This document shows, in pieces, positions 3,758-58,373 of a stretch of 64,000 bases of DNA. The notes under the pieces were generated by a model. The model did not search any database. It was not told where the DNA came from and saw nothing but the letters and a program-made list of their open reading frames with translations. Source of the DNA: Terriglobia bacterium (GTDB lineage: Bacteria > Acidobacteriota > Terriglobia > JAJPHL01 > JAPKYU01); contig CBDBKE010000004.1 of NCBI GenBank assembly GCA_965206645.1, positions 1,120,001 through 1,184,000 on the forward strand, read 5' to 3'. Position 1 is the stretch's first letter. Each line of letters begins with the position of its first letter. Both the position numbers and the translations under genes were made by a program.

Positions 3758-6700
3758 ATGACCACCCACTCAGGCCAGGCCACGGCGGTCCTCGCCGAAA
3801 AGCCCTCCGTTGCACGAGACATTGCCCAAGTCCTGGGCGCCCACCGGCGTGGCGAGGGGTTCCAGCACGGCAACGGATACATCGTGACGTGGGCCATCGG
3901 TCACCTTGTCTCGCTCGCCGAACCCCACGAAATCAATCCTGCCTGGCGTCGTTGGCGGCGGGATCTGCTCCCGCTGTTGCCTCGCGAGTGGCCCCTGGTC
4001 GTCTACGAAGAGACTCGTGATCAGTTCGAGGTCGTCCGAAGAATCCTCCGCAGCAACAAAGTCGCCCGGATCGTGGCGGCGACCGATGCAGGACGGGAGG
4101 GCGAGCTGATCTTCCGCTACATCTACAAGTTGGTCGGATGCACGAAACCGGTGGAGCGCCTCTGGATTTCCTCGCTGACATCCGAGGCAATTCGGCAAGG
4201 CTTCCGCACGCTGAAGCCTGCCCGAGCATACGACTGTCTCGCCGATGCGGCCCGAGCGCGCAGCCGGGCCGACTGGCTCGTCGGCATGAACCTCTCCCGC
4301 CTCTACAGTCTGGACTGCCAGCAACAGCTGTCAGTCGGACGGGTACAGACACCGACCCTGGCCATGGTGGTCGAGCGGGAGTTGGCGATTCGCTCGTTCG
4401 TGCCCGAGGACTATCTGCAGGTCGTCGCGACCTTCCAACCCTTGGAGGGTGCCGGCGACGAGCCAGGAGAGCAATCGGATGGCTCCGCGCAAAAGCTGTC
4501 TTTCAAGGGAACATACTTCCGGCCGGCTGAGAACCCAGCGTCGGTCGGCAAAGCTGAGCTTCTCGACAAGGGCCCATCCCAGCGTGGCACGCGGCTGCCG
4601 GCCGACGGTGAGGAAGCCCGCCAGATCGTCGAGCGGGCCCAAACGGGAGAGGCTCACATCGCGTCCATCGAATGCGAGACGAAGCGGCTGGCGCCTCCCT
4701 TGCTCTATGACCTGACGGAGCTGCAGCGCCACGCCAATCGACTCTACGGCTTCAGCGCGAAGCGGACCTTGGATCTCGCGCAGAACCTCTACGAGAAGCA
4801 CAAGCTCCTCACGTACCCTCGCACCAACAGTCGTCATCTCTCCCAGGACGTGGCAGCAACACTGGACAAAGTCGTACGGGCGATCGCCGGGCCCTATCAA
4901 GCGTCACTTGCTCCGGGAACCGGCAGGCGCCCCCTGGGTCGGCGGTTCGTCGATGACGCCAAGGTCACCGACCACCACGCGATCATCCCCACCGGCGTTG
5001 CGGGATCACCGCCGCGCGGCGATGAAGCCAAGATCTATGACCTGGTGTGCCGTCGTCTGCTCGGTGCTTGGCACCAGGACCACGTCTGGGCTGTCACCAC
5101 CATCATCACCACCGTCACTTCGCCTGCCGAGCCAGAGCAATCGGACCGCGTGGTCGACCGCTACTGCAGCCCGGGCATGTCGGTCGAACAAGAAGGCTGG
5201 AAAGTGCTGGACCTGGCGCCCCCAAGTAAAGCCGCCAAACGAAAACCGACAGCGGAAGAGATCCGAGACGACTCCTCGTCAAAGAACTCCCCCTCCGACG
5301 GAGAAGGCGCACAGAGAATCCCACCGGGACTGGCACAGGGCCAGCCACAACGAGTCTCCCACGTCGAAGCGCTTTCCAAGAAGACACGGCCGCCGAAGCG
5401 ATTCACCGAGGCCACGCTGCTGACGGCGATGGAGTCTGCCGGGAAGACGCTCGAAGAAAAAGAGCTTTCCGACGCTATGAAAGACCGCGGGTTGGGCACG
5501 GCGGCGACCCGCGCGACGATCATCGAGACAGTGTTGCGAAGGGAATACCTGCGGCGTAAGGGCAAGTCCCTCGAGGCGACCGAGAAAGGGATTCACTTGA
5601 TTGACGTCGTGCACGCTGCGGTCAAGAGTCCGGCCATGACCGGCGAGTGGGAAGCGCAACTGCGCGAGATCGAACGCGGCCAGGGCCAATTCCAGAAGTT
5701 CATGCAGGGGATCGAGGAGTACCTTCGCCACGTTGTCGGCAAGAAGCCGGTGCAAGGACAGCCCGAGCCCTACGCGGAGCATCAGTCATCCCTTCGGCCG
5801 ACGGCGGAGTCGCTCGGATCTCGGGCGACCCGTTCCCTTGAGCAAACAGAACGGCGCTCTCTGGCTGCGAGTGCGGGGGCTGGCCCACAAGGGGCGCTCT
5901 CTCACGCCCCGGCAGAGGTGGATCGCGGTTCGCCCACAGCTCGTGTGTCTACGGGCACGGACGGTGCGGAACAGGGTGGGTCCGGGCTCGGCGAGCTGCT
6001 GCGGTCCGGCTTCGGCTTCGAGTCATTCCGTCCCTATCAGGAGGAGGTCTGCGAGGCAGCCGCCGCCGGGCGTGACGTGCTACTGGTGATGCCCACCGGC
6101 GCCGGCAAATCGCTCTGCTACCAACTCCCTGGCCTGGCGCGCGGGGGCGTGACGCTGGTCATCAGCCCCCTGATCGCGCTCATGGAAGATCAGGTTGCCA
6201 AGCTCCAACAAACGGGCCTTCGTGCGGAGCGGATCCACTCTGGGCGCGACCGGGGGCTCAGCCGCGAGGTCTGTTTCCGTTACCTCGAGGGGAAACTCGA
6301 TTTTCTCTTCATCGCCCCGGAACGGTTGAATGTGACAGGCTTCCCGGAGATGCTCGCCAAGCGGACTCCCACGCTCATCGCGATCGACGAGGCACACTGT
6401 ATCTCACACTGGGGTCACGATTTCCGTCCCGAGTATCGCATGTTGGGACAGCGGCTCGCCCCGCTGCGTCCCGCTCCCGTCATCGCACTGACCGCGACCG
6501 CGACCCCGCTGGTGCAAGACGACATCATCGAACAGCTCGGGCTCAACAACCCGTTATGCGGGATCCACGGATTCCGGCGCGACAACATCGCCATCGAGGT
6601 CATCGAGAGGACGCCGAGTCAACGCCCTCCAGCAGTCAAGGAGCTGCTCGCGGAGCCAGTGCAGCGCCCCGCCATCATCTATGCGCCCACGCGCAAGTCC

Positions 6701-8029
6701 GCCGAAGAGCTCGCGCTGGAGTTAGCACCACAGTTCTCGACAGCGGCCTACCACGCGGGAATGATGCCGGAGACCCGCGACAAGGTCCAAACAGCGTTTC
6801 TGTCGGGCGCACACGAAGTCATCGTCGCCACGATCGCCTTCGGGATGGGGATCGACAAGCCCAACATCCGCACGGTCGTGCATACCGGCCTACCGGGCAG
6901 CGTGGAAGCCTACTATCAGGAAATCGGCCGGGCCGGACGCGACGGCAAGCCGTCCCGGGCGGTGCTGATGTATTCCTGGGCCGACCGCAAGACGCACGAG
7001 TTCTTCCAAGGGCGCGACTATCCCGCTGTGGAAGAGCTGGAGCGGATCTTCGAGAAACTGTCCAACGAACCCGAGGCCCGCCAGAAACTCAAGCAGCAGG
7101 TTCGAATGGACATGATCGTCTTCGAGAAAGCGCTCGAAAAACTCTGGATTCACGAGGGAGCGCTGATCGATCCCGAAGAAAACGTGCGGCGCGGTCATGA
7201 CCGCTGGAGGGCACCCTATATCGCGCAACGCGAGTACAAGCTCAAGCAGCTTGACCGCATCGTCCGCTTTGCCTCCTCACATGAGTGTCGCATGCGCGAC
7301 CTCGTCCGACACTTCGGCGACCAAGCGGACTCGCAACAGCCGTGCGGCACCTGTGACATTTGCGCTCCGGATTCTTGTGTCGTGCAGCGGTACCGGCAGC
7401 CCAGCGAAGAAGAAAACGTCAGTCTCGATCAGATCGTTGAAGCCGTCAAGGCGCAAGAGGGACTGGCCCTCGGCCGGTTGCACGAACAAGTCGCCAAAGC
7501 GACCCCGCTGGAACGAAAGACTTTCGAGAAGCTGCTGGGTGGGTTGGCCCGGGCAGGGCTCGTCAAGACAATCGCTGCTGCCTTCGATAAGAACGGGCGG
7601 AGGATCGAATATCGCCGCGTTTTTCTTACCCAGGAGGGCCGGCAGCTCACTGGCTCGGCCGCACCCCTCGTCTCGTTGCCGGTCGAGGCTCCCCCTGCCC
7701 CCAAGAAGAAAAAGAAGAAACGCACGGCGAAGCCCGGAAAGAAAGAGCCACGACCGGAGAAGCACAGGCCCACTGTTCAGCCCATCGAAGCCGACGACGG
7801 ACTCCCGGATCCACAACTGGTCGAGCAGCTGCGAGCCTGGCGTCTTGAGAAAGCCCGTGCGCAGCGCATCCCAGCTTTCCGCGTCTTCCCGGACCGAACC
7901 TTAAACTCCATCGCGCAATTGCGCCCCACCAACCAGGAAGAGCTCTTACAAGTGCCAGGCATCGGGCCCCGTCTCGCTCGTAAATACGGTCGGAAGATTC
8001 TCTCGCTCGTAGCCGGAAACGACAAGTGA
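3758..8029 (+). CDS. topB: DNA topoisomerase III-RecQ helicase-HRDC fusion protein (1423 aa)
   Basis: TOPRIM LAEKPSVA and ATDAGREGE, LSVGRVQTPTL, catalytic TYPRT; RecQ MPTGAGKSLCYQ, IDEAHCISHWGHDFRP, YYQEIGRAGRDG, Zn motif CGTCDIC; C-terminal HRDC; one uninterrupted ORF. Confidence 0.93.
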   Translation: MTTHSGQATAVLAEKPSVARDIAQVLGAHRRGEGFQHGNGYIVTWAIGHLVSLAEPHEINPAWRRWRRDLLPLLPREWPLVVYEETRDQFEVVRRILRSNKVARIVAATDAGREGELIFRYIYKLVGCTKPVERLWISSLTSEAIRQGFRTLKPARAYDCLADAARARSRADWLVGMNLSRLYSLDCQQQLSVGRVQTPTLAMVVERELAIRSFVPEDYLQVVATFQPLEGAGDEPGEQSDGSAQKLSFKGTYFRPAENPASVGKAELLDKGPSQRGTRLPADGEEARQIVERAQTGEAHIASIECETKRLAPPLLYDLTELQRHANRLYGFSAKRTLDLAQNLYEKHKLLTYPRTNSRHLSQDVAATLDKVVRAIAGPYQASLAPGTGRRPLGRRFVDDAKVTDHHAIIPTGVAGSPPRGDEAKIYDLVCRRLLGAWHQDHVWAVTTIITTVTSPAEPEQSDRVVDRYCSPGMSVEQEGWKVLDLAPPSKAAKRKPTAEEIRDDSSSKNSPSDGEGAQRIPPGLAQGQPQRVSHVEALSKKTRPPKRFTEATLLTAMESAGKTLEEKELSDAMKDRGLGTAATRATIIETVLRREYLRRKGKSLEATEKGIHLIDVVHAAVKSPAMTGEWEAQLREIERGQGQFQKFMQGIEEYLRHVVGKKPVQGQPEPYAEHQSSLRPTAESLGSRATRSLEQTERRSLAASAGAGPQGALSHAPAEVDRGSPTARVSTGTDGAEQGGSGLGELLRSGFGFESFRPYQEEVCEAAAAGRDVLLVMPTGAGKSLCYQLPGLARGGVTLVISPLIALMEDQVAKLQQTGLRAERIHSGRDRGLSREVCFRYLEGKLDFLFIAPERLNVTGFPEMLAKRTPTLIAIDEAHCISHWGHDFRPEYRMLGQRLAPLRPAPVIALTATATPLVQDDIIEQLGLNNPLCGIHGFRRDNIAIEVIERTPSQRPPAVKELLAEPVQRPAIIYAPTRKSAEELALELAPQFSTAAYHAGMMPETRDKVQTAFLSGAHEVIVATIAFGMGIDKPNIRTVVHTGLPGSVEAYYQEIGRAGRDGKPSRAVLMYSWADRKTHEFFQGRDYPAVEELERIFEKLSNEPEARQKLKQQVRMDMIVFEKALEKLWIHEGALIDPEENVRRGHDRWRAPYIAQREYKLKQLDRIVRFASSHECRMRDLVRHFGDQADSQQPCGTCDICAPDSCVVQRYRQPSEEENVSLDQIVEAVKAQEGLALGRLHEQVAKATPLERKTFEKLLGGLARAGLVKTIAAAFDKNGRRIEYRRVFLTQEGRQLTGSAAPLVSLPVEAPPAPKKKKKKRTAKPGKKEPRPEKHRPTVQPIEADDGLPDPQLVEQLRAWRLEKARAQRIPAFRVFPDRTLNSIAQLRPTNQEELLQVPGIGPRLARKYGRKILSLVAGNDK

Positions 8030-41091: not shown

Positions 41092-42153
41092 GGCGTTGTT
41101 GCAGAAATCTGACTCCATCCCCAACGCTCTCCCTCCTGATAGGCTAGGGGATGGGCAAAAGCGACTACACCTTCCGATATAAGGTTCGCAACTGGCCGGA
41201 GTACAACCGGGCTCTGGTGAAACGTGGGCAGCTGACACTGTGGTTCGACACGGAGGCAGTGGCTGCCTGGCGTCATCCAGGACCCTTCGAAGGGCGAGGC
41301 CGGCCCAAGGTCTACGCAGATGCGGCGATCCAATGTGCGCTGGTCCTGAATTCGGTGTTTCGCCTCAACCTACGGACCACTCAAGGGTTCCTTCAATCCA
41401 TCGTGGCGCTCATGGCTCTCGACCTCCCAGTGCCCAACTACAGCACGGTGAGCCGAAGGCAAAGCGCCGTCGACGTCCGACTGAGTGTAGGGCCCACGGA
41501 TCGACCACGACATGTCGTCATCGATTCGACGGGCCTGAAGATCTACGGAGCCGGTGAGTGGCACATCAGAAAACACCGAACCCTCCGCCGTAGGACATGG
41601 CGAAAGCTCCACCTAGGCGTCGATGAGACGACGAAAGAGATCGTTGCGATGGACCTGACTGCGAGCAACGTCCACGACGCCCGAAGGCTCTCTTCGTTGC
41701 TGTCTAAGACTCCTGGTTCGATCGGGCAAGTCTCCGCAGACCGGGCCTACGACACGGGTTCCTGCTACGAGGCCGTGCTCCAGCACGACGCTATCGTGAC
41801 GATCTTGCCGCGACGCAATGCACGATGCAGCCGAGACTCTCATCCGCCTCCGTGGCGTGCGATGCGTGATACCCATCTCCGGCGTATTAGGACGCAGGGC
41901 CGTTATGAGTGGCGGAAGTCGAGTGGCTGCACTCGCCAGAGCGTGGCGGAGAATGCGGTCTCACGGTACAAGGCGATACTCGGGGTAAGCCTCTCGGCCC
42001 GCACGGTCAAGAACCAAAAAGTCGAAGCCGCGATCAAGTGCGCTGTGCTGAACCGGATGGCGGAGCTTGGAATGCCACGATCGGAGCGCGTGTACTGAGG
42101 CGGATGAGCTTCTCGGCCCGGTTCGCCGCGAGCGCGAATTACGCAACAACGCC
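41092..42153 (+). mobile_element. IS5-family (IS903-like) copy 2 with intact transposase (41151-42098)
   Basis: IRs and full 315-aa ORF. Confidence 0.95.
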
Positions 42154-43886: not shown

Positions 43887-44948
43887 GGCGTTGTTGCAGA
43901 AATCTGACTCCATCCCCAACGCTCTCCCCCCTGATAGGCTAGGGGATGGGCAAAAGCGACTACACCTTCCGATATAAGGTTCGCAACTGGCCGGAGTACA
44001 ACCGGGCTCTGGTGAAACGTGGGCAGCTGACACTGTGGTTCGACACGGAGGCAGTCGCTGCCTAGCGTCATCCAGGACCCTTCGAAGGGCGAGGCCGGCC
44101 CAAGGTCTACGCAGATGCGGCGATCCAATGTGCGCTGGTCCTGAATTCGGTGTTTCACCTCAACCTACGGACCACTCAAGGGTTCCTTCAATCCATCGTG
44201 GCGCTCATGGCTCTCGACCTCCCAGTGCCCAACTACAGCACGGTGAGCCGAAGGCAAAGCGCCGTCGACGTCCGACTGAGTGTAGGGCCCACGGATCGAC
44301 CACGACATGTCGTCATCGATTCGACGGGCCTGAAGATCTACGGAGCCGGTGAGTGGCACATCAGAAAACACCGAACCCTCCGCCGTAGGACATGGCGAAA
44401 GCTCCACCTAGGCGTCGATGAGACGACGAAAGAGATCGTTGCGATGGACCTGACTGCGAGCAACGTCCACGACGCCCGAGGGCTCTCTTCGTTGCTGTCT
44501 AAGGCTCCTGGTTCGATCGGGCAAGTCTCCGCAGACCGGGCCTACGACACGGGTTCCTGCTACGAGGCCGTGCTCCAGCACGACGCTATCGTGACGATCT
44601 TGCCGCAACGCAATGCACAATGCAGCCGAGACTCTCATCCGCCTCCGTGGCGTGCGATGCGTGATACCAATCTCCGGCGTATTAGGACGCAGGGCCGTTA
44701 TGAGTGGCGGAAGTCGAGTGGCTGCACTCGCCAGAGCGTGGCGGAGAATGCGGTCTCACGGTACAAGGCGATACTCGGGGTAAGCCTCTCGGCCTGCACG
44801 GTCAAGAACCAAAAAGTCGAAGCCGCGATCAAGTGCGCTGTGCTGAACCGGATGGCGGAGCTTGGAATGCCACGATCGGAGCGCGTGCACTGAGGCGGAT
44901 GAGCTTCTCGGCCCGGTTCGCCGCGAGCGCGAATTACGCAACAACGCC
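43887..44948 (+). mobile_element. IS5-family copy 3 with nonsense mutation (TGG to TAG at ~44063)
   Basis: IRs; comparison with copy 2. Confidence 0.93.
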
Positions 44949-45112: not shown

Positions 45113-45943
45113 CTAAAGTGTTAAATGGCGATCCGCTCTCTTGTCCTTCAGTTGCTCCCAGCTCATAGGTCGCCATTCCCGCGCCAACCGCTTGGCTTCG
45201 GCAACTTGTAAAGCAGTCATCTTCTCTGCCAGTGAGTCTCTCGCTAACCGGAAGTCCTCCGCGTTCTCTTTAGTTCGTGAAGCTGCCAAGTTAATCCACT
45301 TGTGGGCTTGGACGTAGTCCTGGGGCACGCCCTGGCCGTTGGCGTAGCTGACCCCGAGGTTGTATTGAGCACTGGCGTTCCCCTGCTCGGCAGCTTTGCG
45401 ATACCAACTCATGGCCTCTTGGTAGTCCTGGGGCACTCCCTCGCCGTTGTCGTACATGACCCCGAGGTTGTATTGAGCATTGGCGTACCCCTGTTCGGCG
45501 GCCTTGCGATACCAACCCACTGCCTCTTGGTCGTCCTGGGGCACGCCCCGGCCTTCGGCGTACATGACCCCGAGGTTGTATTGGGCCTCAGCGTTCCCCT
45601 GATCGGCGGCCTTGCGATACCACTTCAGAGCTTCTTGGTAGTCCTGGGACACACCCTCGCCGGTGGCGCACATGACCCCGAGGTTGTATTGGGCAATGGA
45701 GTACCCCTGCTCGGCGGCCAGCCGTAACCACTTCACAGCCTCTTTGTCGTCCTGGGACACGCCCTCGCCGGTGGCGTACATGACACCGAGGTTGTATTGG
45801 GCAATGACGTCGCCCTGCTCGGCGTCCTTGCGTAGCTGCTCGATGTCCTGGGTCTTGGCGGGTCCAGGTTGAAACCCTACTAGAACGACAAGAGCGATGA
45901 GTAAAAACGCTAGCTTTCCACTGCGAGTGTTCCGGTTGGTCAT
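45113..45943 (-). CDS. Exported Sel1-repeat protein (5 repeats)
   Basis: Five AEQG..AQYNLGV.Y..GEGV.QD repeats; signal peptide. Confidence 0.93.
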   Translation of the reverse strand: MTNRNTRSGKLAFLLIALVVLVGFQPGPAKTQDIEQLRKDAEQGDVIAQYNLGVMYATGEGVSQDDKEAVKWLRLAAEQGYSIAQYNLGVMCATGEGVSQDYQEALKWYRKAADQGNAEAQYNLGVMYAEGRGVPQDDQEAVGWYRKAAEQGYANAQYNLGVMYDNGEGVPQDYQEAMSWYRKAAEQGNASAQYNLGVSYANGQGVPQDYVQAHKWINLAASRTKENAEDFRLARDSLAEKMTALQVAEAKRLAREWRPMSWEQLKDKRADRHLTL

Positions 45944-46218
45944 AGGCTTGAATCTTAACAAGATACGCCCGATTTCCGGCACAGAATCACGCCTGCCGGT
46001 CTGGATCGCCGTCGGCGGGCTCCAGCACCCACAAATCGCTCCTGGGCGATTCTGGAGGTTTCAATTCCCCCTCACCGGAGTGGGGGGGATATCCCTGTTT
46101 GCCGGACTGTCTTTCGTTACAATCCGGTCCCCTCACCGAAGCGAGGGGAGATATTGCCAGTAGTGTAACACTCATGGCGGCGTCTCCGGAGCGGACCTTA
46201 GAAGCGTGTGATAATGTC

Positions 46219-47447
46219 TGCCAGCTCAACCGGTCGATGCAACACAAGCGTTAAATCGTTCTGCCGGAGTTTCAAACTCCAGCGTCTGACGGGGCCGTTC
46301 GTTCAGCTGACGTGCCACCTTGTTCAGATGCGCCTGAGAGTGCACCGACAAGTCCGTTCCCTTGGGGAAGTACTGTCGGAGTAGACCGTTGGTGTTCTCA
46401 TTCGAACCGCGCTGCCATGGACTCTGAGGATCACAGAAGTATACGTCAATGTCGGTCGCCAACGTGAACCGTCGATGCTCGGCGAGCTCCAGGCCTCGAT
46501 CCCAAGTCAGAGATTTGTACAGTTCCGTCGGCAGCTTCTTCGCGTGCTTGATGAGCGCCGACACGACCGTCTCCGTTTTCTTGCTGGATACTTTCGTAAG
46601 CATCACGTAGCGCGTATGACGTTCGACCAGAGTCGCAATGTGGCTGTTCTTCGATCCGGACAGCAGATCGCCTTCCCAATGACCGGGCACGGCACGATCT
46701 TCGACCGAGGCCGGGCGCTCACGGATCGATACGATGTCGGTGATCTGTCCTCGTCCATGGCCTCTCAGACTTGCATGTCGGGATCGACGAATCGTCCGCT
46801 TTGACCGCAGATGCTGCATCAGCTCTGCCTTCAGCGCACCGCGGGCTTGAACAAACAGGCTGCGGTAGATGGTCTCGTGAGACACGTGATAGGACGGATC
46901 CTTCGGATAGGCTCGTTTCAGCCAGCTGGCGATCTGCTCAGGCGACCAGTTTATGCTGAGCTTTCTGGCCACTACCCGTCGTAGTTGTGGATGCTTGACC
47001 AGCTGACACCGCTTCGGCCGGCGGGCCCTCTCCCCGGCTTGCTCATCGGCCTCCGCTGCTCGATAGTCATTATCGCCGCCATTCCGCCGAATCTCCCGGC
47101 TCACCGTCGATGGTGAGCGACCCAGCAACCCGGCGATGGATCGTATCGATTGATGTGCCGCAATGCCTCGAGAGATCTCTTCGCGCTCCGACAACGTCAG
47201 TGCCCAACATGAACGGCGTGGTGGCCGAGGACGGATGCCTCCGTACGGAGCAAGCTGATGGTAAACAGACGATGGCTGCTTACAAAACACTCGTCCAATC
47301 GACTTGAGCGACTCCCCTCGTTTCCACCGATCCCACACCTCCTCCAGTTCCGCCAGCGTGTAACCGCGACGAGCTCTTTGCTTCATCCGCATACACTCCA
47401 CCTCCTCCTTTCAAGGCAAAGTGTTGCGTCGATGGGTTGAGACCACC
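46219..47447 (-). mobile_element. IS30-family element (transposase 46226-47401)
   Basis: GHWEGDL, LTWDRG.E, PWQRGSNENTNGLLRQY; IRs ..CTCAAC...TCGA.GCAACAC. Confidence 0.94.
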
Positions 47448-48219: not shown

Positions 48220-49042
48220 GTCAGCACACTCCGTTCACTGGGTATTTATCCTGCAAAACTGCCAAGTCTTTCTGCTACTGCCTCTCCCTGCTACAACCGG
48301 AATTTCCAATATGGATCTCTGTTACCGACAACCGTACTCCCTCCTTCGCACCGCAGGCAAGGATTTCTCCACGGGATACATGCTTTGATCGGATCGAGGG
48401 GGTCCAACGACTCGTTCTTTCCCTTCGGAAAGGGTTATCTGCCCCCCACGTCGCAGAGAAGGCCGAAAACGGCGAGGGCGAGCAGCGGCCAGATTAAACG
48501 CCCTCCCGCGGCGCCAAGAGGGTGAAGGAGGACCACCAGCAGCCGTTGCCAGACGTCTCCGCCGTCCGCGAATGCTCCAACCAGGGCCGTGAATCCTGCG
48601 AAGATCGCGTGAATCACAGCCAGAATCAGCACCGGAATCCTGAAGCTGGTCATGCGGACATGATCCTTACTAATAATGCGGGCTTTCGTCCACCGGACTC
48701 GATGAATGCGTCCCCGGCGGGCAGCCCCTGTGGTCACGCGAATGGACGATCCGAGTAGGCGACAGTGACCGATGCCGTTGGACCCGCTGAAAGCGGGAGA
48801 TCGCTCCCGCCCGTCCTATTATGCTATTAATTAATTTATTATATTGTACTTAATGAAGAATCTCTGGGCGTGATCACGCGTTCGATCACCATTTGCAAGT
48901 TTTTGGCTTGGAATCCTCCCACGCCCCCAATACAAGATCCACACAGAAACAAACCGACCACAAGGGAGGCTGAACGCCCTGAGCTACGCGACTTGATCGA
49001 AGTCCCTACATTGGAGTTTGCAAGTGCGATCAGAAGCGGCGG

Positions 49043-49803
49043 GGGAGGATGAGCACCGCTGATGCGCGTGTTACCCTGGCGAGGCTTCCTGCCGCAATGG
49101 CGCTTGTGGGCCAACACCGTTCAGTTTGGCAAGAATCTATCCTGCATTTCCCTTCGCGTTGCGTTCCATTCGCCGGAGCATGGCGCGTCCGGTTCCAGGT
49201 GCCCCGTCCCGGCGGCGATTCCCCAATCGGGCTTGCCGCCTCCGACCGGAAGACGGGTGTGAGGTTGCGCCATTTGCCGCTGGCCTTCGCTGGTTCCGCT
49301 TTGTTCCGACGCAAGGCTCGCGCCAGAACGGTCCCCTCGCCTGGCAGGCGTCTGGCACTCGCTCTTGCCCTTGTCGGCCCTGCCCGTCACTGGCTTCGGC
49401 GGCGCTGTTCCTCCCGTGTCAGGGTTTGGCCGTTTCCGCCATTCGGGGGTGAGCGGAAACGCTCACAAACCCTTAAACTTTCAGGAGGAAACACATCATG
49501 GCTAACCCCAAACCCATCTCTGAAGTCCGCATCGGTCGCGTCAAGGCTGCGATTTGGCCGAACGAAACCGAAGGCCGCACGCGGCACAATGTCACCTTCT
49601 CCCGTCTCTACAAGGACGGCGATGAATGGAAGAGCACGCAGAGCTTCAGTCGCAACGACCTGTTGCTGCTTGCCAAAGTGGCCGATCAGGCCCACTCGCG
49701 TATCTTCGAGCTCCAGCACGAAGAAGAGCCTCAGGCAGAATCCTAGTGCGACGCGCATCAGAGAGCGGCGGGGCAATCCCCGCCGCGATCCGATCCTTTC
49801 GAC
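49043..49803 (+). repeat. Duplicated module, copy B
   Basis: Homologous to 32868-33626. Confidence 0.88.
49498..49746 (+). CDS. Conserved 82-aa hypothetical protein, copy B
   Basis: Three substitutions relative to copy A. Confidence 0.85.
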   Translation: MANPKPISEVRIGRVKAAIWPNETEGRTRHNVTFSRLYKDGDEWKSTQSFSRNDLLLLAKVADQAHSRIFELQHEEEPQAES

Positions 49804-49909
49804 AAGGAGAATGAACATGAACTGCATCGTGAGCGAAGTCTCCCAAGCTTTCCTGGCGGCGGCCGATAAAGGACTTGCGCGGTGAACGGTATTACCGTAC
49901 ATTATTATC

Positions 49910-50008
49910 GTGATCGTTCGCTCTGTCCGCCACCGGGGATTGCGCCGGCTGATCGAGAACGACAACCCCCGGTTCCTGCGGCGGAACCTGGTCGACCGGG
50001 TGCGTAAG
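49910..50008 (+). pseudogene. HigB/RelE plasmid-killer-type toxin N-terminal fragment, cut by MITE
   Basis: IVRSVRHRGLRRLIENDN. Confidence 0.65.
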
Positions 50009-50139
50009 GGTACTGTCAAGTTGAGCAGAATCCGCCCGTTTTGCGGAAAGATTCTGCTGGATCAGAGACTGAGAATCAATGACTTAGCGGTGGCGCCGGG
50101 CGGCGAGAATGCCGCCAAACTGCTTAACTTGACAGTACC
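50009..50139 (+). mobile_element. MITE-A copy 5
   Basis: Same 131-bp element. Confidence 0.93.
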
Positions 50140-50629
50140 CTGTTGCCTTCCACAGCGGTCCATGGCCAGCCTCGTGTCCCGCGATCGCGTGTGCGATCTC
50201 GTGTAGCACGGTGTCCCGGATCTGCTCCTCGCTTCCCTCCAGGGCATGGGTGCGGCTGATCCAGATCACGTGGTGTCGGAAATGACAGGCGCCAAGGCGT
50301 TTCCTGGCCTCGCCGAACGCGAGCGTCCAGCCCGTGAGCCCCTGCTCGTCCATCAACCGCCTCGCCATTCCCGCGACGCCGTTCAGCCTCTCCGCACCGT
50401 TCCTCGCGCTTTCCTTTCCCGCCCTGTGGAGTAAGCCATAGGAGACGTTCCAGCCTGTCTCTTCGCAGCGTACCTTGGCGCTCTTCGGGTTGAACTTCAC
50501 GATCTCGCCACGCCTTGGTCCGTCGGGACTTGTGAACGTCACCTTGTCCCCCACGCGGTAGTCAGCGCGTGCGTTGTCGTGCCGCGTGATGATCGTGGCT
50601 CGTCGCGCTCCTCCCGAGGGCTTTAACAT
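50140..50629 (-). pseudogene. SprT-like metalloprotease fragment, cut by MITE
   Basis: DTVLHEIAHA...GHGPLWK. Confidence 0.8.
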
Positions 50630-50955
50630 TGACTCGGGGACGTTCCAGGTCCGTTCTGCGGTGTCGACGACCTTCGCGAAGCGGCGTCGGCCCTGCCTTT
50701 GGAAGAGATGTCCGTGGATTGTTTTCCCCTTGTGAGTGAACTGTACGGCAGACCCGATAGATAGCGGGCTTCCTCCGGCTGATTGATCATTCGGCCTTCT
50801 CCTCTGGCTTGGAGTTGATCAGTCCCGGCACCCGGTACTCCCGCGTGTGCTCCATCCATTCCACCGCAACGCTCCACTCTCTGGACTCCAGATCGATGTC
50901 GGCTCGGCTCCGCGGCGGTCAGTTGACATTCTTATGACTGAAGGAAGACATCGCC

Positions 50956-51230
50956 ATGAGTGGCCACGACGCATTCAAGCGCATCCTGACATCGTTGCAC
51001 GAAGCCATGCTCGACGATGTTCACTGGCCGACCACCACGGCCCTGATTGACGAGGCCTGCGGCCTGACGAGCAATGCACTCCTGGTCGGCGAAGGCCCGA
51101 AGGACGACCTCCGGGTGCTCTTCGCCGGGCTCTACTACCGGGGACAGCGCCGCGAAACCTGGAACGAGAGTACCTCGAGGTCTACCATCCCATCGACGAA
51201 CGTGTGCCGCGCCTGCAGCAACTGCCCGAC
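50956..51230 (+). pseudogene. N-terminal fragment of a LuxR-type sensor regulator
   Basis: DAFKRILTSLHEAMLDD.HWP...LIDEACG; frameshifted and truncated. Confidence 0.55.
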
Positions 51231-51466
51231 CCGTGGGCCCCGGCCGAGCGGTGCCCGGCCCCCGCGAAAGGCCGCCGCCACGTCCCGAACAATATGGGGC
51301 AGTGCCCCATATCGATTCAGGTATTCTTCCCAGATGCCCCTCGATCGTGCGACGGCATGGCATCCCCCGTTGTCCAGGCCAAGGCACGAGTGCGTATGCC
51401 GTTAGCGAGGAGTCCCCGTCCCCGATCGGGTCCGGCCCGGCGGCCTTGGTCATCGGAACTGCGGCC

Positions 51467-52426
51467 GTGACGACCGTGCTGCCCGCGATCCCGCCCGAGA
51501 CGCTGGCCGAGTGGCAGCACGTGGTCGACCTGACGGCACGGCTCGCCCGGGTGCCGGCGAGCCTGATCATGCGCACCGAGCGTCCGAAGCACACGGTCCT
51601 GGTGAGTAGCCGCACCGAGGGCAACCCCTACGATGTCGGGCGCGAGTACGATCTGAACGCATTGCTCTATTGCCAGGGCGTGTTTGAAAACGACGGCGAG
51701 CTGGTGGTCGAGGACGCGACCCACGACCCGGTCTGGGCGGGTAACGAGGATCTGGCCGACGGGATGCGCTTCTACATCGGCTATCCCCTGAAATGGCCCA
51801 GCGGCGAGGTGTTCGGCACGATCTGCGTGCTCGACCGCGAGCGCAACGACCACGCGCTGCTGTTCCGCGAGGGGCTGCAGGCGTTCGCCGGCGTGGTCGA
51901 GGCGAACCTGCGGTCGCTGGTCGAGCTCGCCGAACGCCGCCGGCTCGAAACCGCCCTGCAGCACTCGCTCGACCAGACCGCACGGCAGGTGGTCGAACGC
52001 ACCAGCGAACTGCAGGACGCCAACACGGCGCTGCGCGTGCTGCTCGGCAATGTCGAGAAGTCCCACGAGGCGCGCAACGAGCAGCTGCTGCAACAGATCC
52101 ATACGCTGGTGATGCCGCATGTGGCGAAGCTCGCGCGGCTCGTGGAGCGCGACCGCGCGGCCGTGGAGTACGTGAGCCTGATCGAGACCAACCTTACGAC
52201 CCTCACCTCGTCGCTGGCATCGAGGATGGCGCGCGTGTTCCAGGCCTTGACCGCGACCGAAGCCGACGTCGCGCATCTGGTGATGCGCGGCCTGACCACG
52301 AAGGACATCGCCGCCACGCTGTCGCGGGCGCCGAGCACGATCGACTTTCACCGCCACAACATCCGCGCCAAGCTCGGCGTGGAGCGGCGCGTGACCCTGC
52401 GCGCGCACCTGCTGTCGATCCGCTGA
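51467..52426 (+). CDS. GAF + coiled-coil + LuxR HTH regulator
   Basis: FYIGYPLKWPSGEVFGTICVLD (GAF); LTATEADVAHLVMRGLTTKDIA...TIDFHRHNIRAKLG (HTH). Confidence 0.9.
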   Translation: MTTVLPAIPPETLAEWQHVVDLTARLARVPASLIMRTERPKHTVLVSSRTEGNPYDVGREYDLNALLYCQGVFENDGELVVEDATHDPVWAGNEDLADGMRFYIGYPLKWPSGEVFGTICVLDRERNDHALLFREGLQAFAGVVEANLRSLVELAERRRLETALQHSLDQTARQVVERTSELQDANTALRVLLGNVEKSHEARNEQLLQQIHTLVMPHVAKLARLVERDRAAVEYVSLIETNLTTLTSSLASRMARVFQALTATEADVAHLVMRGLTTKDIAATLSRAPSTIDFHRHNIRAKLGVERRVTLRAHLLSIR

Positions 52427-52938
52427 GCGGGGGCGCCGGCGCCGCGGCGGGCTCCCGAGACCGGGCACAGGACCGGCGAACGGAACGGCCAACACCATGG
52501 GGTGTTCCCCCTCATAACCACCCGCGATGTTCTCGTATACCCATCCTCCCGGCGCGTCGGTAGCATGGCCTCCACGTGATGAACGGCAGGGATGGCATCT
52601 GCCGCCCACCCGCGGAGGGCGCTGCGGCGGCGCGGGCAGACCGCGCGCGCGCACTGCCCGGGCGTGCCCGACCGTCCGCGCCGGACGTGCGGCGGCGTGC
52701 CTGCTGGGTCGGCGCAGAGGCCGGTCGCGCGATGCGCGCCACGGGCGCGACGTCACGAGGGATTTCGATGGTCGACGGGTGGGGCGAGTCACCGGCGGCG
52801 ACGGGCGCCTCACCGATGGCGGCGAGGCCACCATCGTGATCAACGACGGGAGGCCGCCACGACGGGGAAATAGGGAGCACCGGTTGGCGCTGACATGCTG
52901 TGACCTGAAGCGGCGGGAAACGCGATCACATCGAGGCG

Positions 52939-52974
52939 TTTTACTCGCGATAACTGGAATTATCGCGAGTAAAA
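52939..52974 (+). other. lox-like recombination site 1 (15-6-15)
   Basis: TTTTACTCGCGATAA-CTGGAA-TTATCGCGAGTAAAA, perfect arms, just upstream of the recombinase. Confidence 0.8.
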
Positions 52975-53011
52975 ATGAGCGGTCTTTTTCGACGGAACGG
53001 GAGGCCGCCCG

Positions 53012-53995
53012 ATGCTGATTGCCGAGACGCCATGCGATGTCGAGCGTGTGACCGGCGTGGCACACGCCGCGGAGGTTGGGGACTCCCTGGCCGCTTACTT
53101 CGACGCGGCCCGGGGGGCGTTCAGCCACAACACCGAACGCGCGCTGAGAGCCGACGTGGAGATATTCGCAGCCTGGTGCCGACAACATCTCCGGGCGGCG
53201 TTGCCCGCCAGCGTCCCTACCGTGGTCGCGTTCATCGACGACATGGCGCGCGTCAAGACTCCGGCGACGGTGCGCCGCTACGTGTCCAGCATCGCCACCG
53301 TGCACAAGGCGCTACGGCAGACGAACCCGCTGGACAGCGCCGCCGTCCGGTTCGCCCTGCAACGGATGCACCGGCGCCGGGGGCGTCGGCAGGCGCAAGT
53401 CCAGGGGCTGACCTGGCCGATGCGAAACCGACTGCTGGAGGCGGCCGGAGACCGGTTGATCGACGCCCGGAACCGCGCGCTCCTGGCGATGGGCTACGAC
53501 ACGCTGCTGCGGCGCTCCGAGCTGGTCTCGCTGGACGTGTCTGATGTACTGGAGGAAATCGACGGAACGGCGACGCTGCTCGTGCGCTCAGGCAAGACCG
53601 ACGCGGAGGGGCGAGGCGCGACGCTCTACCTGGCGCGCGACACCGTGCAGCTCGTCAAGACGTGGCTCGAACGGGGCGGCGTCGACGGAGGGCGGGTGTT
53701 CCGCTCCGTGCGCAAGGATCGCACGGTCGGCGAGCAGCTCGACGCGAGCCAGGTGCCGCGCATCTACAAGCGGATGGCGCGACACGCCGGGCTTCCCGAC
53801 GACATCGTCGACGCGCTGGCCGGGCACAGCACGCGCGTCGGGCCGGTGCAGGACATGATCGCCTGTGGCATCGAGTTGCCGGCCATCCTGCAGTCGGGTC
53901 GGTGGAAGACGACGCGCATGGTCCACCGCTACGGGGAGCGGTTGCTGGCGCGGCGCAGCGGCGCCCCCCAGCTGGCCGAGCGGCAGCAGCGCTGA
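53012..53995 (+). CDS. Cre-like tyrosine recombinase
   Basis: RNRALLAMGYDTLLRRSEL (R), RSGKTD (K), GHSTRVG (HxxR), GRWKT (W), HRY (Y). Confidence 0.92.
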   Translation: MLIAETPCDVERVTGVAHAAEVGDSLAAYFDAARGAFSHNTERALRADVEIFAAWCRQHLRAALPASVPTVVAFIDDMARVKTPATVRRYVSSIATVHKALRQTNPLDSAAVRFALQRMHRRRGRRQAQVQGLTWPMRNRLLEAAGDRLIDARNRALLAMGYDTLLRRSELVSLDVSDVLEEIDGTATLLVRSGKTDAEGRGATLYLARDTVQLVKTWLERGGVDGGRVFRSVRKDRTVGEQLDASQVPRIYKRMARHAGLPDDIVDALAGHSTRVGPVQDMIACGIELPAILQSGRWKTTRMVHRYGERLLARRSGAPQLAERQQR

Positions 53996-54296
53996 ACAGG
54001 CCCCACCCTGGAGGCGGCGGGTCGTGACGCTGGCGCGCACGTCAGGGGTAGAGGTTCGCCCGCGCCGTCCCCAGCGGCGCCCTCACATCTCTGGGACGTT
54101 ATCGCGAGCAAAAAGTCGACATTGTTGCTACATGTCCCGCGATGGGCGCGGCGCACTCCGCCGGTTGTTTCGTCGGCAGACGCAACCCTGTTCCGACAGA
54201 ACCGCCGTGATTTCAGCGGTTTATTACTGAAAGTGATGGCGAATGCGGGTCACGGTGTGATACGCTCGCGCCGTACCGACTTGGCGCGGAACTGAT

Positions 54297-54332
54297 TTTT
54301 GTGCGCGATAATTCCAGTTATCGCGAGTAAAA
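54297..54332 (-). other. lox-like recombination site 2, inverted relative to site 1
   Basis: TTTTGTGCGCGATAA-TTCCAG-TTATCGCGAGTAAAA; spacer is the reverse complement of site 1's. Confidence 0.78.
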
Positions 54333-54779
54333 CGCCTCGATGTGATCGCGTTTCCCGACGCTTCAGGTCACAGCATGTCAGCGCCAACCGGTGCTCCCTA
54401 TTTCCCCGTCGTGGCGGCCTCCCGTCGTTGATCACGATGGTGGCCTCGCCGCCATCGGTGAGGCGCCCGTCGCCGCCGGTGACTCGCCCCACCCGTCGAC
54501 CATCGAGATCCCTCGTGACGTCGCGCCCGTGGCGCGCATCGCGCGACCGGCCTCTGCGCTGACCCAGCAGGCACGCCGTCGCAGCGCCCTCCGCGGGTGG
54601 GCGGCAGATGCCATCCCTGCCGTTCATCACGTGGAGGCCATGCTACCGACGCGCCGGGAGGATGGGTATACGAGAACATCGCGGGTGGTTATGAGGGGGA
54701 ACACCCCATGGTGTTGGCCGTTCCGTTCGCCGGTCCTGTGCCCGGTCTCGGGAGCCCGCCGCGGCGCCGGCGCCCCCGC

Positions 54780-55490
54780 TCAGCGGATCGACAGCAGGTG
54801 CGCACGCAGGGTCACGCGCCGCTCCACGCGCCGCGCGAGCTTCGCCACATGCGGCATCACCAGCGTATTGATCTGTTGCAGCATCTGCTCGTTGCGCGCC
54901 TCGTGGGACTTCTCGACATTGCCGAGCAGCACGCGCAGCGCCGTGTTGGCGTCCTGCAGTTCGCTGGTGCGTTCGACCACCTGCCGTGCGGTCTGGTCGA
55001 GCGAGTGCTGCAGGGCGGTTTCGAGCCGGCGGCGTTCGGCGATCTCGACCAGCGACCGCAGGTTCGCCTCGACCACGCCGGCGAACGCCTGCAGCCCCTC
55101 GCGGAACAGCAGCGCGTGGTCGTTGCGCTCGCGGTCGAGCACGCAGATCGTGCCGAACACCTCGCCGCTGGGCCATTTCAGGGGATAGCCGATGTAGAAG
55201 CGCATCCCGTCGGCCAGATCCTCGTTGGCCGCCCAGACCGGGTCGCGGGTCGCGTCCTCGACCACCAGCTCGCCGTCGTTGTCGAACACGCCCTGGCAAT
55301 AGAGCGATGCGTTCAGATCGTACTCGCGCCCGACATCGTAGGGGTTGCCCTCGGTGCGGCTACTCACCAGGACCGTGTGTTTCGGACGCTCGGTTCGCAT
55401 GATCAGGCTCGCCGGCACCCGGGCGAGCCGTGCCGCCAGGTCGACCACGCGCTGCCACTTGGCCAGCGTCTCGGGCAGCACGGTCTTCAC
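54780..55490 (-). pseudogene. GAF-LuxR paralogue with in-frame deletion of the HTH
   Basis: Reads ...VAKLARRVERRVTLRAHLLSIR; deletion between CGTGGAGCG repeats. Confidence 0.85.
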
Positions 55491-55879
55491 GGCCGCAGTT
55501 CCGATAACCACCGCCGCCGGGCGGTGTGCGAAGGGACCGGGGTCCGCCGCGCCCGCTCGGGCGGCCTCCCCCGGGGGCGGGGCCGCGGGGCCCGGGCCGG
55601 GCCCGCGCCAACAGCAGCGCAGAAGCGCTGCAGCCGCTGCCCGCGGGTGGCCCGGCGCCTGCAGCGCGCCGGGACCGATCGGGGACCGGGACGCCTCGTT
55701 AACGGCATACGAACTCCTGCCTCGGCCTGTACACAGGGGGAGTCCATACCTTCGCACGATCGAGGGGCATCTGGGAAGAATACCTGAATCGATATGGGGC
55801 ACTGCCCCATATTGTTCGGGACGTGGCGGCGGCCTTTCGCGGGGGCCGGGCACCGCGCGGCCGGGGCCAACGGGTCGGG

Positions 55880-56195
55880 CAGTGCGGAGAGGCTGAACGG
55901 CGTCGCGGGAATAGCGAGGCTGTTGATGGACGAGCATGGGCTCACGGGCTGGACGCTCACGTTCGGCGAGGCCAGGAAACGCCTTGGCGCCTGTCGTTTC
56001 CGACACCACGTGATCTGGATCAGCCGCACCCATGCCCTGGAGGGAAGCGAGGAGCAACTCCTGGACACCGTGCTACACGAGATCGCACACGCGATCGCGG
56101 ACACGAGGCTGGCCATGGACTGCTGTGGAAGGCAACAGCACGGCGCATCGGGGCAACACCAAGGGGCGAAGACCTATGAGAGCCAAACTAGCTAA
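55880..56195 (+). pseudogene. SprT-like fragment, second copy, frameshifted
   Basis: LHEIAHA followed by a frameshift. Confidence 0.75.
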
Positions 56196-56242: not shown

Positions 56243-56923
56243 TTAGGAGGCTGTGGTATCGGGATAGTCGAACGGGTCTTCCACCTCCACCACCTCCGCC
56301 GCCCGGATGGACTCGCGATTCCGACGGAAATAGACGAATGCCGAGACCACACCTAGTCCGAAACCGATGGCGTGGGTTCGGTAGCTGACGTTCTCCTGAA
56401 GCGTCGACGGCCACAGGACCACCAGTATGATGCCTACCGCCCGCACGACCCGCTTCCCGAGACCCACTCTGCGATCCACGAGCAGGTTCATGCTCAGCCA
56501 GAAACCCACCATCCAATAGACCAATCCTGACGCCCCCACCAAGCTGACCTCGGGAGGATAGGTCAGCAGGGAAAGGTAGTTAGTCAACCCGGCCAGAGCC
56601 AGACCCAGAACCGGGAAGACCCAGAAGCCGAAGTATCCAAAGAGCAGATAGCTGAAGAAGGCGAGAAAGATTGCGTTCGAGAAAAAGTGCGCAATGTCCG
56701 TGTGCACCGCTACGGCCGTCAGCAGTCTCCAGTATTCATGTTCCTCTAGAGCCCCTTCCGAAGTGGCGGCAAGAATCGGCAGGAGAGCCGCTCCGTTCTG
56801 CCAGGCTAGCAGGGAAATCCCCAGAATCGTCAAGACCGAGAGTGCCCCGACTTCCAGGCTGTACTCTCGCGGTTTTCGCGAAAGGAGAGTCTCTAGGACA
56901 CGGCGGGACGGAAAACCTTCCAT
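56243..56923 (-). CDS. Rhomboid-family intramembrane serine protease
   Basis: EYWRLLT, H....H...N, VGASG, THAIGF. Confidence 0.9.
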   Translation of the reverse strand: MEGFPSRRVLETLLSRKPREYSLEVGALSVLTILGISLLAWQNGAALLPILAATSEGALEEHEYWRLLTAVAVHTDIAHFFSNAIFLAFFSYLLFGYFGFWVFPVLGLALAGLTNYLSLLTYPPEVSLVGASGLVYWMVGFWLSMNLLVDRRVGLGKRVVRAVGIILVVLWPSTLQENVSYRTHAIGFGLGVVSAFVYFRRNRESIRAAEVVEVEDPFDYPDTTAS

Positions 56924-57215
56924 GAGGTAATCTTGCCGCAGCGAAGGCGGAGGCTGCGGTCACGGTTCAGCTCCCCTAAAAGTTCTCGGTTTCCAGTCCG
57001 GGTTTCCCTGTTGCCCGATTCTTGTCCAAGCCCAGCAATTCGTCCTGAAACCGGCATGGGCAGGAGCATTTTCGCCGCATCCGAATCCGTTTCCGGTATG
57101 CCGACTTCCGGCCAAGTGGCGCCGAATCGCTAAACACATCTGCGTATCGTGTGGGCGACGTCCTTGTCCTGCGATAATGCGCGATACGAGGGCACTTGTC
57201 CGGTTAGCGCGTTAT

Positions 57216-57314
57216 CCGGAATTTCCTTTTTGGCCTTCCGGCGATTGAAAATATACACGCATCTGCGTCCCAGCCAGTACAATGTTTTCTCCGAGAGGAC
57301 CATCAGCTCCGAGC
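57216..57314 (-). mobile_element. Second solo IS1380 right-end remnant, cut by IS5
   Basis: Matches 655-752. Confidence 0.88.
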
Positions 57315-57317
57315 CTT

Positions 57318-58373
57318 GGCGTTGTTGCGTAATTCGCGCTCGCGGCGGACCGGGCCGAGAAGCTCATCCGCCTCAGTACACGCGCTCCGATCGTGGCATT
57401 CCAAGCTCCGCCATCCGGTTCAGCACAGCGCACTTGATCGCGGCTTCGACTTTTTGGTTCTTGACCGTGCGGGCCGAGAGGCTTGCCCCGAGTATCGCCT
57501 TGTACCGTGAGACCGCATTCTCCACCACGCTCTGGCGAGTGCAGCCACTCGACTTCCGCCACTCATAACGGCCCTGCGTCCTAATACGCCGGAGATGGGT
57601 ATCACGCATCGCACGCCACGGAGGCGGATGAGAGTCTCGGCTGCATCGTGCATTGCGTTGCGGCAAGATCGTCACGATAGCGTCGTGCTGGAGCACGGCC
57701 TCGTAGCAGGAACCCGTGTCGTAGGCCCGGTCTGCGGAGACTTGCCCGATCGAACCAGGAGTCTTAGACAGCAACGAAGAGAGCCTTCGGGCGTCGTGGA
57801 CGTTGCTCGCAGTCAGGTCCATCGCAACGATCTCTTTCGTCGTCTCATCGACGCCTAGGTGGAGCTTTCGCCATGTCCTACGGCGGAGGGTTCGGTGTTT
57901 TCTGATGTGCCACTCACCGGCTCCGTAGATCTTCAGGCCCGTCGAATCGATGACGACATGTCGTGGTCGATCCGTGGGCCCTACACTCAGTCGGACGTCG
58001 ACGGCGCTTTGCCTTCGGCTCACCGTGCTGTAGTTGGGCACTGGGAGGTCGAGAGCCATGAGCGCCACGATGGATTGAAGGAACCCTTAAGTGGTCCGTA
58101 GGTGAAACACCGAATTCAGGACCAGCGCACATTGGATCGCCGCATCTGCGTAGACCTTGGGCCGGCCTCGCCCTTCGAAGGGTCCTGGATGACGCCAGGC
58201 AGCCACTGCCTCCGTGTCGAACCACAGTGTCAGCTGCCCACGTTTCACCAGAGCCCGGTTGTACTCCGGCCAGTTGCGAACCTTATATCGGAAGGTGTAG
58301 TCGCTTTTGCCCATCCCCTAGCCTATCAGGAGGGAGAGCGTTGGGGATGGAGTCAGATTTCTGCAACAACGCC
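57318..58373 (-). mobile_element. IS5-family copy 4, with small deletions and a stop near 58090-58100
   Basis: IRs; split ORFs 58087-58314 and 57373-58068. Confidence 0.93.

Follow-up and report, generated by a model that had tools for sequence, protein, structure and literature searches.

A Cre-family recombinase gene bracketed by inverted lox-like sites: a candidate inversion module beside giant secreted-protein genes in three phyla

We describe a gene for a Cre-family tyrosine recombinase that is bracketed by two inverted lox-like sites, S1 and S2. It lies in the window, by which we mean the whole 64-kb stretch of DNA that was analysed, and the same arrangement recurs at loci from three phyla, mostly next to an open frame for a giant, putatively secreted repeat protein. 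We place slightly better than even confidence in the reading that S1, the recombinase gene, a lone half-site (H) where it is present, and S2 together form a self-contained Cre-type inversion module, which in the canonical loci would act as an ON/OFF switch for the adjoining giant gene.

A first, sequence-only reading of this DNA had proposed a Cre/lox-like recombinase and target, and the two sites, the half-site and the 327-aa recombinase that it named are all present (Table 1). It was also accurate in detail: S1 has perfect 15-bp arms around the spacer CTGGAA and ends 37 nt before the recombinase ATG, while the S2 spacer, TTCCAG, is the exact reverse complement of the S1 spacer and the three S2 mismatches all fall in the inner arm. 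S1 can be read equally well as a 13-8-13 site in which GATA adjoins the spacer, and active Cre-type sites share a GATA motif next to the spacer, according to the accessible part of PMC10250229. When the 64-kb window was searched for full sites with up to three mismatches, S1 and S2 were the only matches, and 100 shuffles of the window gave none at all (mean 0.00, largest 0). Single arms with up to two mismatches occur four times in the window, against 0.07 expected, and the fourth of these is H. Across the window's own genome (G000), the arm motif at up to three mismatches forms sites solely at the window locus and at a second copy of the cassette.

Several smaller features accompany the sites. 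A purine-rich block comparable to the putative ribosome-binding site of Table 1 precedes the recombinase gene in other loci as well. Because S1 lies only 37 nt from the ATG, autoregulation by predicted binding of the enzyme at S1 is plausible. The conserved block between H and S2 resembles, in our own reading, an IHF-type bend site. A sigma-70 consensus scan of positions 52600-54700 returned 0 sites, leaving the cassette of the window with no promoter match. Rfam models, run on positions 52500-54800, gave a single, sub-threshold match, to a miRNA model and on the S1 palindrome, which we took as chance. When plasmids were searched for near-identical DNA, no match was found.

Table 1. Features of the cassette and of the long inverted repeats around it (window positions)
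Feature	Position	Strand	Description	Basis
Left long inverted-repeat arm	50140..52979	.	99.3% identity with the right-hand arm of the second cassette	
SprT-like ORF	50084..50629	-	At the outer end of the left arm	Pfam
GAF-like / LuxR (GerE) regulator, 450 aa	51074..52426	+	Intact; in the left arm; reads towards the cassette	Pfam
S1	52939..52974	.	Lox-like, TTTTACTCGCGATAA-CTGGAA-TTATCGCGAGTAAAA; perfect 15-bp arms; chimeric (outer half S2/arm type, inner half S1 type)	
Putative ribosome-binding site GGGAGG	52999..53004	+	7 nt before the ATG	Read from sequence
Cre-family tyrosine recombinase, 327 aa	53012..53995	+		ORF, Pfam, alignment to Cre
Lone half-site H	54099..54113	+	TTATCGCGAGCAAAA; 1 mismatch to the arm	
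Conserved block	54207..54226	+	GTGATTTCAGCGGTTTATTA; between H and S2	Conservation among loci
Terminator-like hairpin	54266..54289	+	Followed by a T-run that reaches into the S2 inner arm	Sequence
S2	54297..54332	.	Same site inverted, TTTTGTGCGCGATAA-TTCCAG-TTATCGCGAGTAAAA; inner-arm variant TTTTGTGCGCGATAA kept in the clade	
Right long inverted-repeat arm	54292..56138	.	91-99% identical to the left arm, with deletions	
Diverged copy of the GAF-LuxR regulator, 425 aa	54780..56057	-	In the right arm; no GerE match; reads towards the cassette	

The recombinase matches Pfam Phage_integrase at 8e-16 and, weakly, a SAM-like N-domain, and a search of NCBIfam gave nothing but far sub-threshold Xer-type matches. 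Its best solved relative is Cre (E 1.8e-24). Residues 21-313 align with Cre residues 22-330, so that this two-domain protein can be aligned to Cre over nearly its full length, and the next solved relative is a XerC-like protein at 0.0024. Residues R167, K195, H272, R275, W298 and Y307 align with Cre R173, K201, H289, R292, W315 and Y324 (numbering from the accessible part of PMC10250229). This bears out the earlier description of an R-K-HxxR-W-Y set that includes the Cre-type Trp, which replaces the usual second His. The alignment shows that the predicted enzyme is a Cre-family tyrosine recombinase in which all six catalytic residues are present. The sites are also of the Cre type, with inverted arms of 13-15 bp around an asymmetric spacer of 6-8 bp, close to the gene. 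No match to a characterised recombinase/site pair was found, and identity to P1 Cre is 28%. Searches of phage and plasmid proteins gave distant relatives only (28% for Cre; 46-50% for proteins on Methylobacterium and other plasmids), and the three plasmid relatives that we inspected from among those at 46-50% identity (L042-L044) are without such a site pair.

A Cre-like enzyme with this Trp, in a window rich in mobile elements, might instead be a TnpS-like cointegrate resolvase of a Tn4651-type transposon, a kinship at which the sequence-only reading had hinted. TnpS and TnpT of such transposons are encoded by a divergent gene pair with one res region in a Tn3-family transposon, and these features are absent here: the cassette holds neither a second, partner gene nor a transposase gene, no Tn3-family transposase stands beside the annotated loci, and there are two full inverted sites, not one res region. 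Judged by this gene context, the kinship is not supported, and we give a TnpS-like resolvase hardly any credence.

If the sites are the targets of this enzyme, they should be found with its homologues, a check that the sequence-only reading had proposed. We assembled 43 loci: 27 from a genome collection, 6 from a scan of metagenome contigs (two of them duplicating genome loci), 2 from the same genus, 6 from a sample of the phylum and 2 from the window's own genome. The phylum sample comprised 401 genomes, of which 4, the window's own among them, had a match at E 1e-90 or better. Three of the 43 loci gave no scorable pair, namely L023, where the contig ends after S1, L037, which is a fragment, and L050, a 54%-identical relative in which the scan found no site pair. 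The other 40 come from Acidobacteriota, Gemmatimonadota and Gammaproteobacteria records, and at all of them both sites are present and flank the recombinase gene, with S1 28-37 nt (or slightly more) before the start. These 40 loci are related, and the same sequence was in some cases filed more than once (L019 = L032 = L033; L034 = L036), so counts given here are not counts of independent events.

The spacers carry the most informative signal. S1 and S2 spacers are exact reverse complements of each other in 39 of the 40 loci, L016 being off by 1 nt, and they fall into ten types (CTGGAA, CTGGAT, CGGGAT, CTGCCT, CTGGCT, CTGTAA, CTGTAG, CTAGAG, TTGTAG and TTGCAG). When placed on a tree of the recombinases, from which L028, L037 and L050 were left out, spacers differ between very close relatives, and both sites have changed together. 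For example, L048 and L049, from one genome, have cassettes that are 97.7% identical and carry TTGTAG and TTGCAG, respectively; likewise, the cassettes of L035 (CTGGAT) and L034 (CGGGAT) are 94.5% identical. Across the loci, the spacer has changed 9 or more times. Homogenisation is not seen in the arms: the S2 inner-arm variant of Table 1 persists through the whole CTGGAA/CTGGAT clade. Matched spacers with unhomogenised arms indicate that the constraint acts specifically on the crossover region, and tyrosine recombinases require homology in the crossover region. Co-evolution of the spacers is strong but indirect support for S1 and S2 recombining with each other, and it strongly supports the pairing of recombinase and target that had been proposed from the window.

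Exact full sites were counted against recombinase genes in individual genomes. G003 has 4 sites and 2 genes, G405 has 6 and 3, and G340 has 4 and 2, the sites in each case forming pairs around the genes only, and G000 likewise has no site other than as pairs around recombinase genes. Since sites occur only in this form, the enzyme has no visible target beyond its own brackets. Of the 40 loci, 30 have the half-site H about 100 nt after the stop codon, always on the plus strand. Its sequence covaries with that of the arms and reads TTATCGGGAG in gammaproteobacterial loci. H is missing from the remaining 10; loci with a short 3' non-coding part (54-171 nt) do not have it. Conservation of this extra arm hints that H may be an accessory element in most loci. 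A separate insertion was seen in L029, where an IS256-type (Mutator family) transposase gene (6167-7504) sits in the cassette between H and S2 and stretches it to 2.8 kb; the spacers of this locus still match.

The window locus itself carries an apparent trace of recombination. Outward of the 36-bp sites, an inverted repeat extends for 1.8-2.8 kb in blocks that are 91-99% identical, with indels. We rejected an assembly artefact because the arms differ from each other by 1-9% and by indels. A second cassette lies 136 kb away (G000:C4:1036874-1038269) and is 98.8% identical to that of the window. On its right side is the same arm that forms the window's left arm, and on its left side is an unrelated flank with a gene, on the opposite strand, for an fn3/cadherin-like protein of more than 1300 aa. 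Homology of the window locus to this second copy and to the same-genus genome G003 starts at 52937, two bases before S1. When the four junctions were aligned, the window S1 was of S2/arm type through the outer flank, the outer arm, the spacer and inner-arm nt 1-8, and of S1 type from inner-arm position 9; its outer arm is TTTTACTCG, in place of which the second copy has TTTTGCTCG. The switch point therefore falls within a 24-bp interval that holds the spacer.

On this alignment, the window S1 is a crossover product between S1 of one cassette and the same-spacer S2 of another, and the kb-long inverted repeats are explained as a by-product of that inter-cassette crossover at S1. In this exchange, the giant-gene flank would have been replaced by a second, inverted GAF-LuxR arm, and the window copy is a derived orphan with no adjoining giant gene. 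The reciprocal product was not found in the genome, which has no further sites. G003 has two canonical loci and no locus of the form arm-cassette-arm, and none of the 27 loci that were compared with themselves (L005-L031) has kb-long inverted repeats. A replication-coupled origin of the repeat, of the 2-micron type, was set aside in favour of the simpler exchange between two cassettes. The long repeats, the second copy and the chimeric S1 had all been overlooked in the sequence-only reading, as had the conservation of H and the giant secreted-protein neighbour. As a separate observation, the GAF-like/LuxR gene (that of the left arm and those of L005, L007, L018 and L027) is 92-96% identical in nucleotide sequence between genomes, and the adjacent recombinases are 64-88% identical in protein sequence. 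For the GAF-LuxR arm, nucleotide identity between genomes with such recombinases is 95-96%. Arm and cassette have therefore had different histories.

The chimeric S1 and the arm-cassette-arm structure, as records of past exchange between cassettes, would also suit a selfish or mobile recombination unit that has no regulatory role and spreads, or shuffles its flanks, by site-specific exchange between cassettes. Several observations point in the same direction, including the patchy distribution of the module (4 of 401 sampled phylum genomes, the window's own included), the 2-4 copies found per genome, a recombinase tree that is discordant with taxonomy, and the IS elements and ArdC-like gene nearby. 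However, no site away from a recombinase gene was seen in five genomes, which leaves such a unit no visible target to enter, and two inverted sites are unable to excise the cassette. Copies within a genome are mostly old paralogues (80-90% nucleotide identity), and in G340 and G405 their spacers have diverged, so that exchange between those copies would be blocked. The left neighbour, moreover, is of one kind across three phyla. We consider a selfish unit unlikely, and return to the inversion module.

In most loci, the left neighbour is a long open frame on the opposite strand, starting at most a few hundred nt from S1. This does not hold for L006, L016 and L029, where none was found, for L025 and L026, where the frame has low GC3, or for the window copy. 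Each of the 12 left frames that were scanned contains fn3, cadherin, Calx-beta, LRR or Ig-like repeats, and a signal-peptide-like stretch is present in most of the 11 giant-gene N-termini that we inspected. The right flank is variable and may hold a convergent GAF-LuxR arm, an OmpR-type regulator, a hybrid kinase-regulator, hsdM or a subtilase. At least five paralogues of the giant fn3/cadherin-like gene that adjoins the second cassette are present in its genome (G000:C4 at about 57-60, 485-488, 512-520 and 1650-1654 kb; C3 at 21-28 kb), none of them with a lox-like site.

Loci of the Gemmatimonadota type have the tightest spacing between cassette and giant gene. Only 27 nt separate S1 from the giant-gene ATG in L019, and the signal-like stretch starts 53-81 nt from S1 in L019, L021 and L032-L036. 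With the start of the giant gene so near S1, a promoter outside the cassette would not fit. In L019, L020, L021, L035 and L036, an outward motif, TTGAC(A/G)-17/18 nt-T..(A/G)AT, stands near S2 in otherwise variable sequence, ending a few nt before S2 (L019, L035 and L036) or about 25-30 nt before it (L020 and L021). We read this motif as a candidate promoter, and it was seen solely in these five sequences of the Gemmatimonadota-type subgroup.

These features can be combined into a mechanism. Four recombinase monomers would synapse S1 with S2 and exchange strands within the spacer, and because the spacers are inverted, the exchange would flip the 1.35-kb cassette, as the geometry of the sites predicts. 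In canonical loci a giant gene for a putatively secreted repeat protein diverges from S1, and the flip would change the sequence upstream of it: the cassette's 3' non-coding end, which in one subgroup bears the outward promoter-like motif near S2, would come to face that gene. The assembled orientation would be a resting OFF state, as the context in part of the family suggests, and H, together with an S1 that lies 37 nt from the ATG, could give the enzyme a means of biasing the reaction and of autoregulation.

As in invertons, inverted sites flank a segment that lies beside a putative regulated gene. The second mark of an inverton, the presence of both orientations, was not found among the 40 loci: no assembly is flipped (0 of 40), and the recombinase gene diverges from the left neighbour in every one. 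The flipping of an approximately 1.35-kb cassette that the sequence-only reading had put forward therefore follows from the site geometry but is not seen in any of these assemblies. No flip was found between loci that share both flanks (the second copy of the window's genome/L040/L041, L008/L012/L031, L009/L010, L011/L017, L014/L015 and L025/L026). Logan contigs from 4 of 24 runs, which are assembled metagenome unitigs with many relatives, yielded short unitigs that break off within S1 and S2; among the 15 of 23 joints listed for these 4 runs, there was no clean S1-S2 opposite-strand joint. Beyond the uniform orientation, other points stand against a switch, including the lack of a sigma-70-like promoter in the window cassette and the terminator-like hairpin just before its S2, the absence of H from 10 of 40 loci, the restriction of the promoter-like motif to one subgroup, and the lack of a giant gene beside the window copy.

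A fixed orientation at 40 of 40 loci is what would be expected if the palindromes were mainly operators, with the protein controlling its own gene and adjacent ones by binding to S1, S2 and H, and with recombination rare or vestigial. The location of S1 in a compact divergent control region, 37 nt from the ATG, and H as a lone predicted binding arm both agree with this. Binding, however, needs no matching spacers, yet the spacers match in 39 of 40 loci despite at least 9 changes. All catalytic residues have been kept, and the window S1 reads as a crossover product. These data argue for recombination between the sites, and we regard a mainly operator role as quite improbable.

Cre-type enzymes with a nearby palindromic site, and invertible switches driven by tyrosine recombinases, are already known. 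In the Hin/hix system of Salmonella, the recombinase gene lies inside an invertible segment with an outward promoter for a surface-protein gene, and Hin itself, a serine recombinase, depends on Fis and an enhancer. The module resembles Hin/hix in having the recombinase gene within a putatively invertible segment, along with, in one subgroup, a candidate outward promoter for a putative surface-protein gene; it differs in that the enzyme is a Cre-type tyrosine recombinase. In Flp/FRT of the yeast 2-micron plasmid, a unique segment is flanked by long inverted repeats, and these contain the recombination sites. The sites of the window also lie within long inverted repeats around a unique segment, but the window is part of a bacterial chromosome, and its long repeats are peculiar to this locus, look like a by-product and imply no role in amplification.

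The Fim recombinase genes lie outside a 314-bp switch that has short repeats. FimB/FimE-fimS and other tyrosine-recombinase invertons, as presented in the accessible parts of PMC6083910, PMC5903667 and PMC9881135, combine a tyrosine recombinase with inverted repeats upstream of a surface-structure gene and strongly favour one orientation. In the present module, by contrast, the gene lies in the predicted invertible segment, the sites are full lox-like palindromes, and one orientation is seen. Cre/loxP of P1, Dre/rox, Vika/vox, Nigri/nox and the YR enzymes described in the accessible part of PMC10250229 belong to the same enzyme family and have a palindromic site near the gene, with GATA by an asymmetric 6-8 bp spacer. 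These Cre-type pairs have one site beside the gene, whereas here two inverted sites bracket it and a conserved fifth arm, H, is added. The setting also differs, being chromosomal and adjoining giant secreted-protein genes, and the enzyme shares only 28% identity with P1 Cre.

Full-text literature searches turned up no account of a Cre-type gene with inverted lox-like sites on either side of it and giant secreted-protein genes nearby, and the approximately 500 predicted pairs in Supplementary Table S2 of PMC10250229 may include members of this family. Nor did we find a programmed inversion reported for the uncultured Acidobacteriota, Gemmatimonadota and Gammaproteobacteria groups that carry the module. 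A wider picture, which we hold tentatively and with somewhat less than even confidence, is that of a horizontally spread family of Cre-type flip switches in at least three phyla, each gating a giant surface or secreted repeat protein. In such a family, the ten orthogonal spacers would allow several switches to share a genome free of cross-talk, the accessory arm would set the resting orientation, and copies with the same spacer would rearrange the chromosome, of which the window would be an example.

Should the module prove to flip, it would represent a phase-variation device that is based on a Cre-type enzyme and controls very large adhesin-like proteins. These Cre/lox-like pairs, with ten natural spacer variants and two arm variants, are also candidate orthogonal tools for genome engineering. 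The window, where a chimeric site sits exactly where the kb-long inverted repeats have their inner edge, would be a natural record of site recombination in vivo.

Mobile and repeated DNA is common around the window locus. A MITE-like repeat of about 131 bp (50009-50139, with inverted ends at 50007-50028 and 50120-50141) abuts the outer end of the left arm and is present in dozens of copies on all four contigs at 93-100% identity. An element at 49000-49885, about 0.8-1 kb long, contains a 278-aa ORF (49049-49885) that has no match in Pfam. This element has at least 15 copies in the genome (88-94% identity), frequently with the 131-bp repeat behind them, and may be an unclassified insertion sequence. 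A repeat of about 100 bp at 57212-57314 is found at over 20 genomic positions (92-98% identity). An IS5-type element (DDE_Tnp_1) is present three times in the window (41151-42098, 44150-44893 and 57373-58068), 99% identical, two copies direct and one inverted, with many further copies elsewhere in the genome. An IS30-like gene (HTH_38 and rve) lies at 46226-47401, and genes for a Sel1-repeat protein (45113-45982) and a rhomboid-family protein (56243-56923) are found among the mobile elements. At the second cassette, an ArdC-like/zincin gene (L051 981-2096) lies 5 kb to the left.
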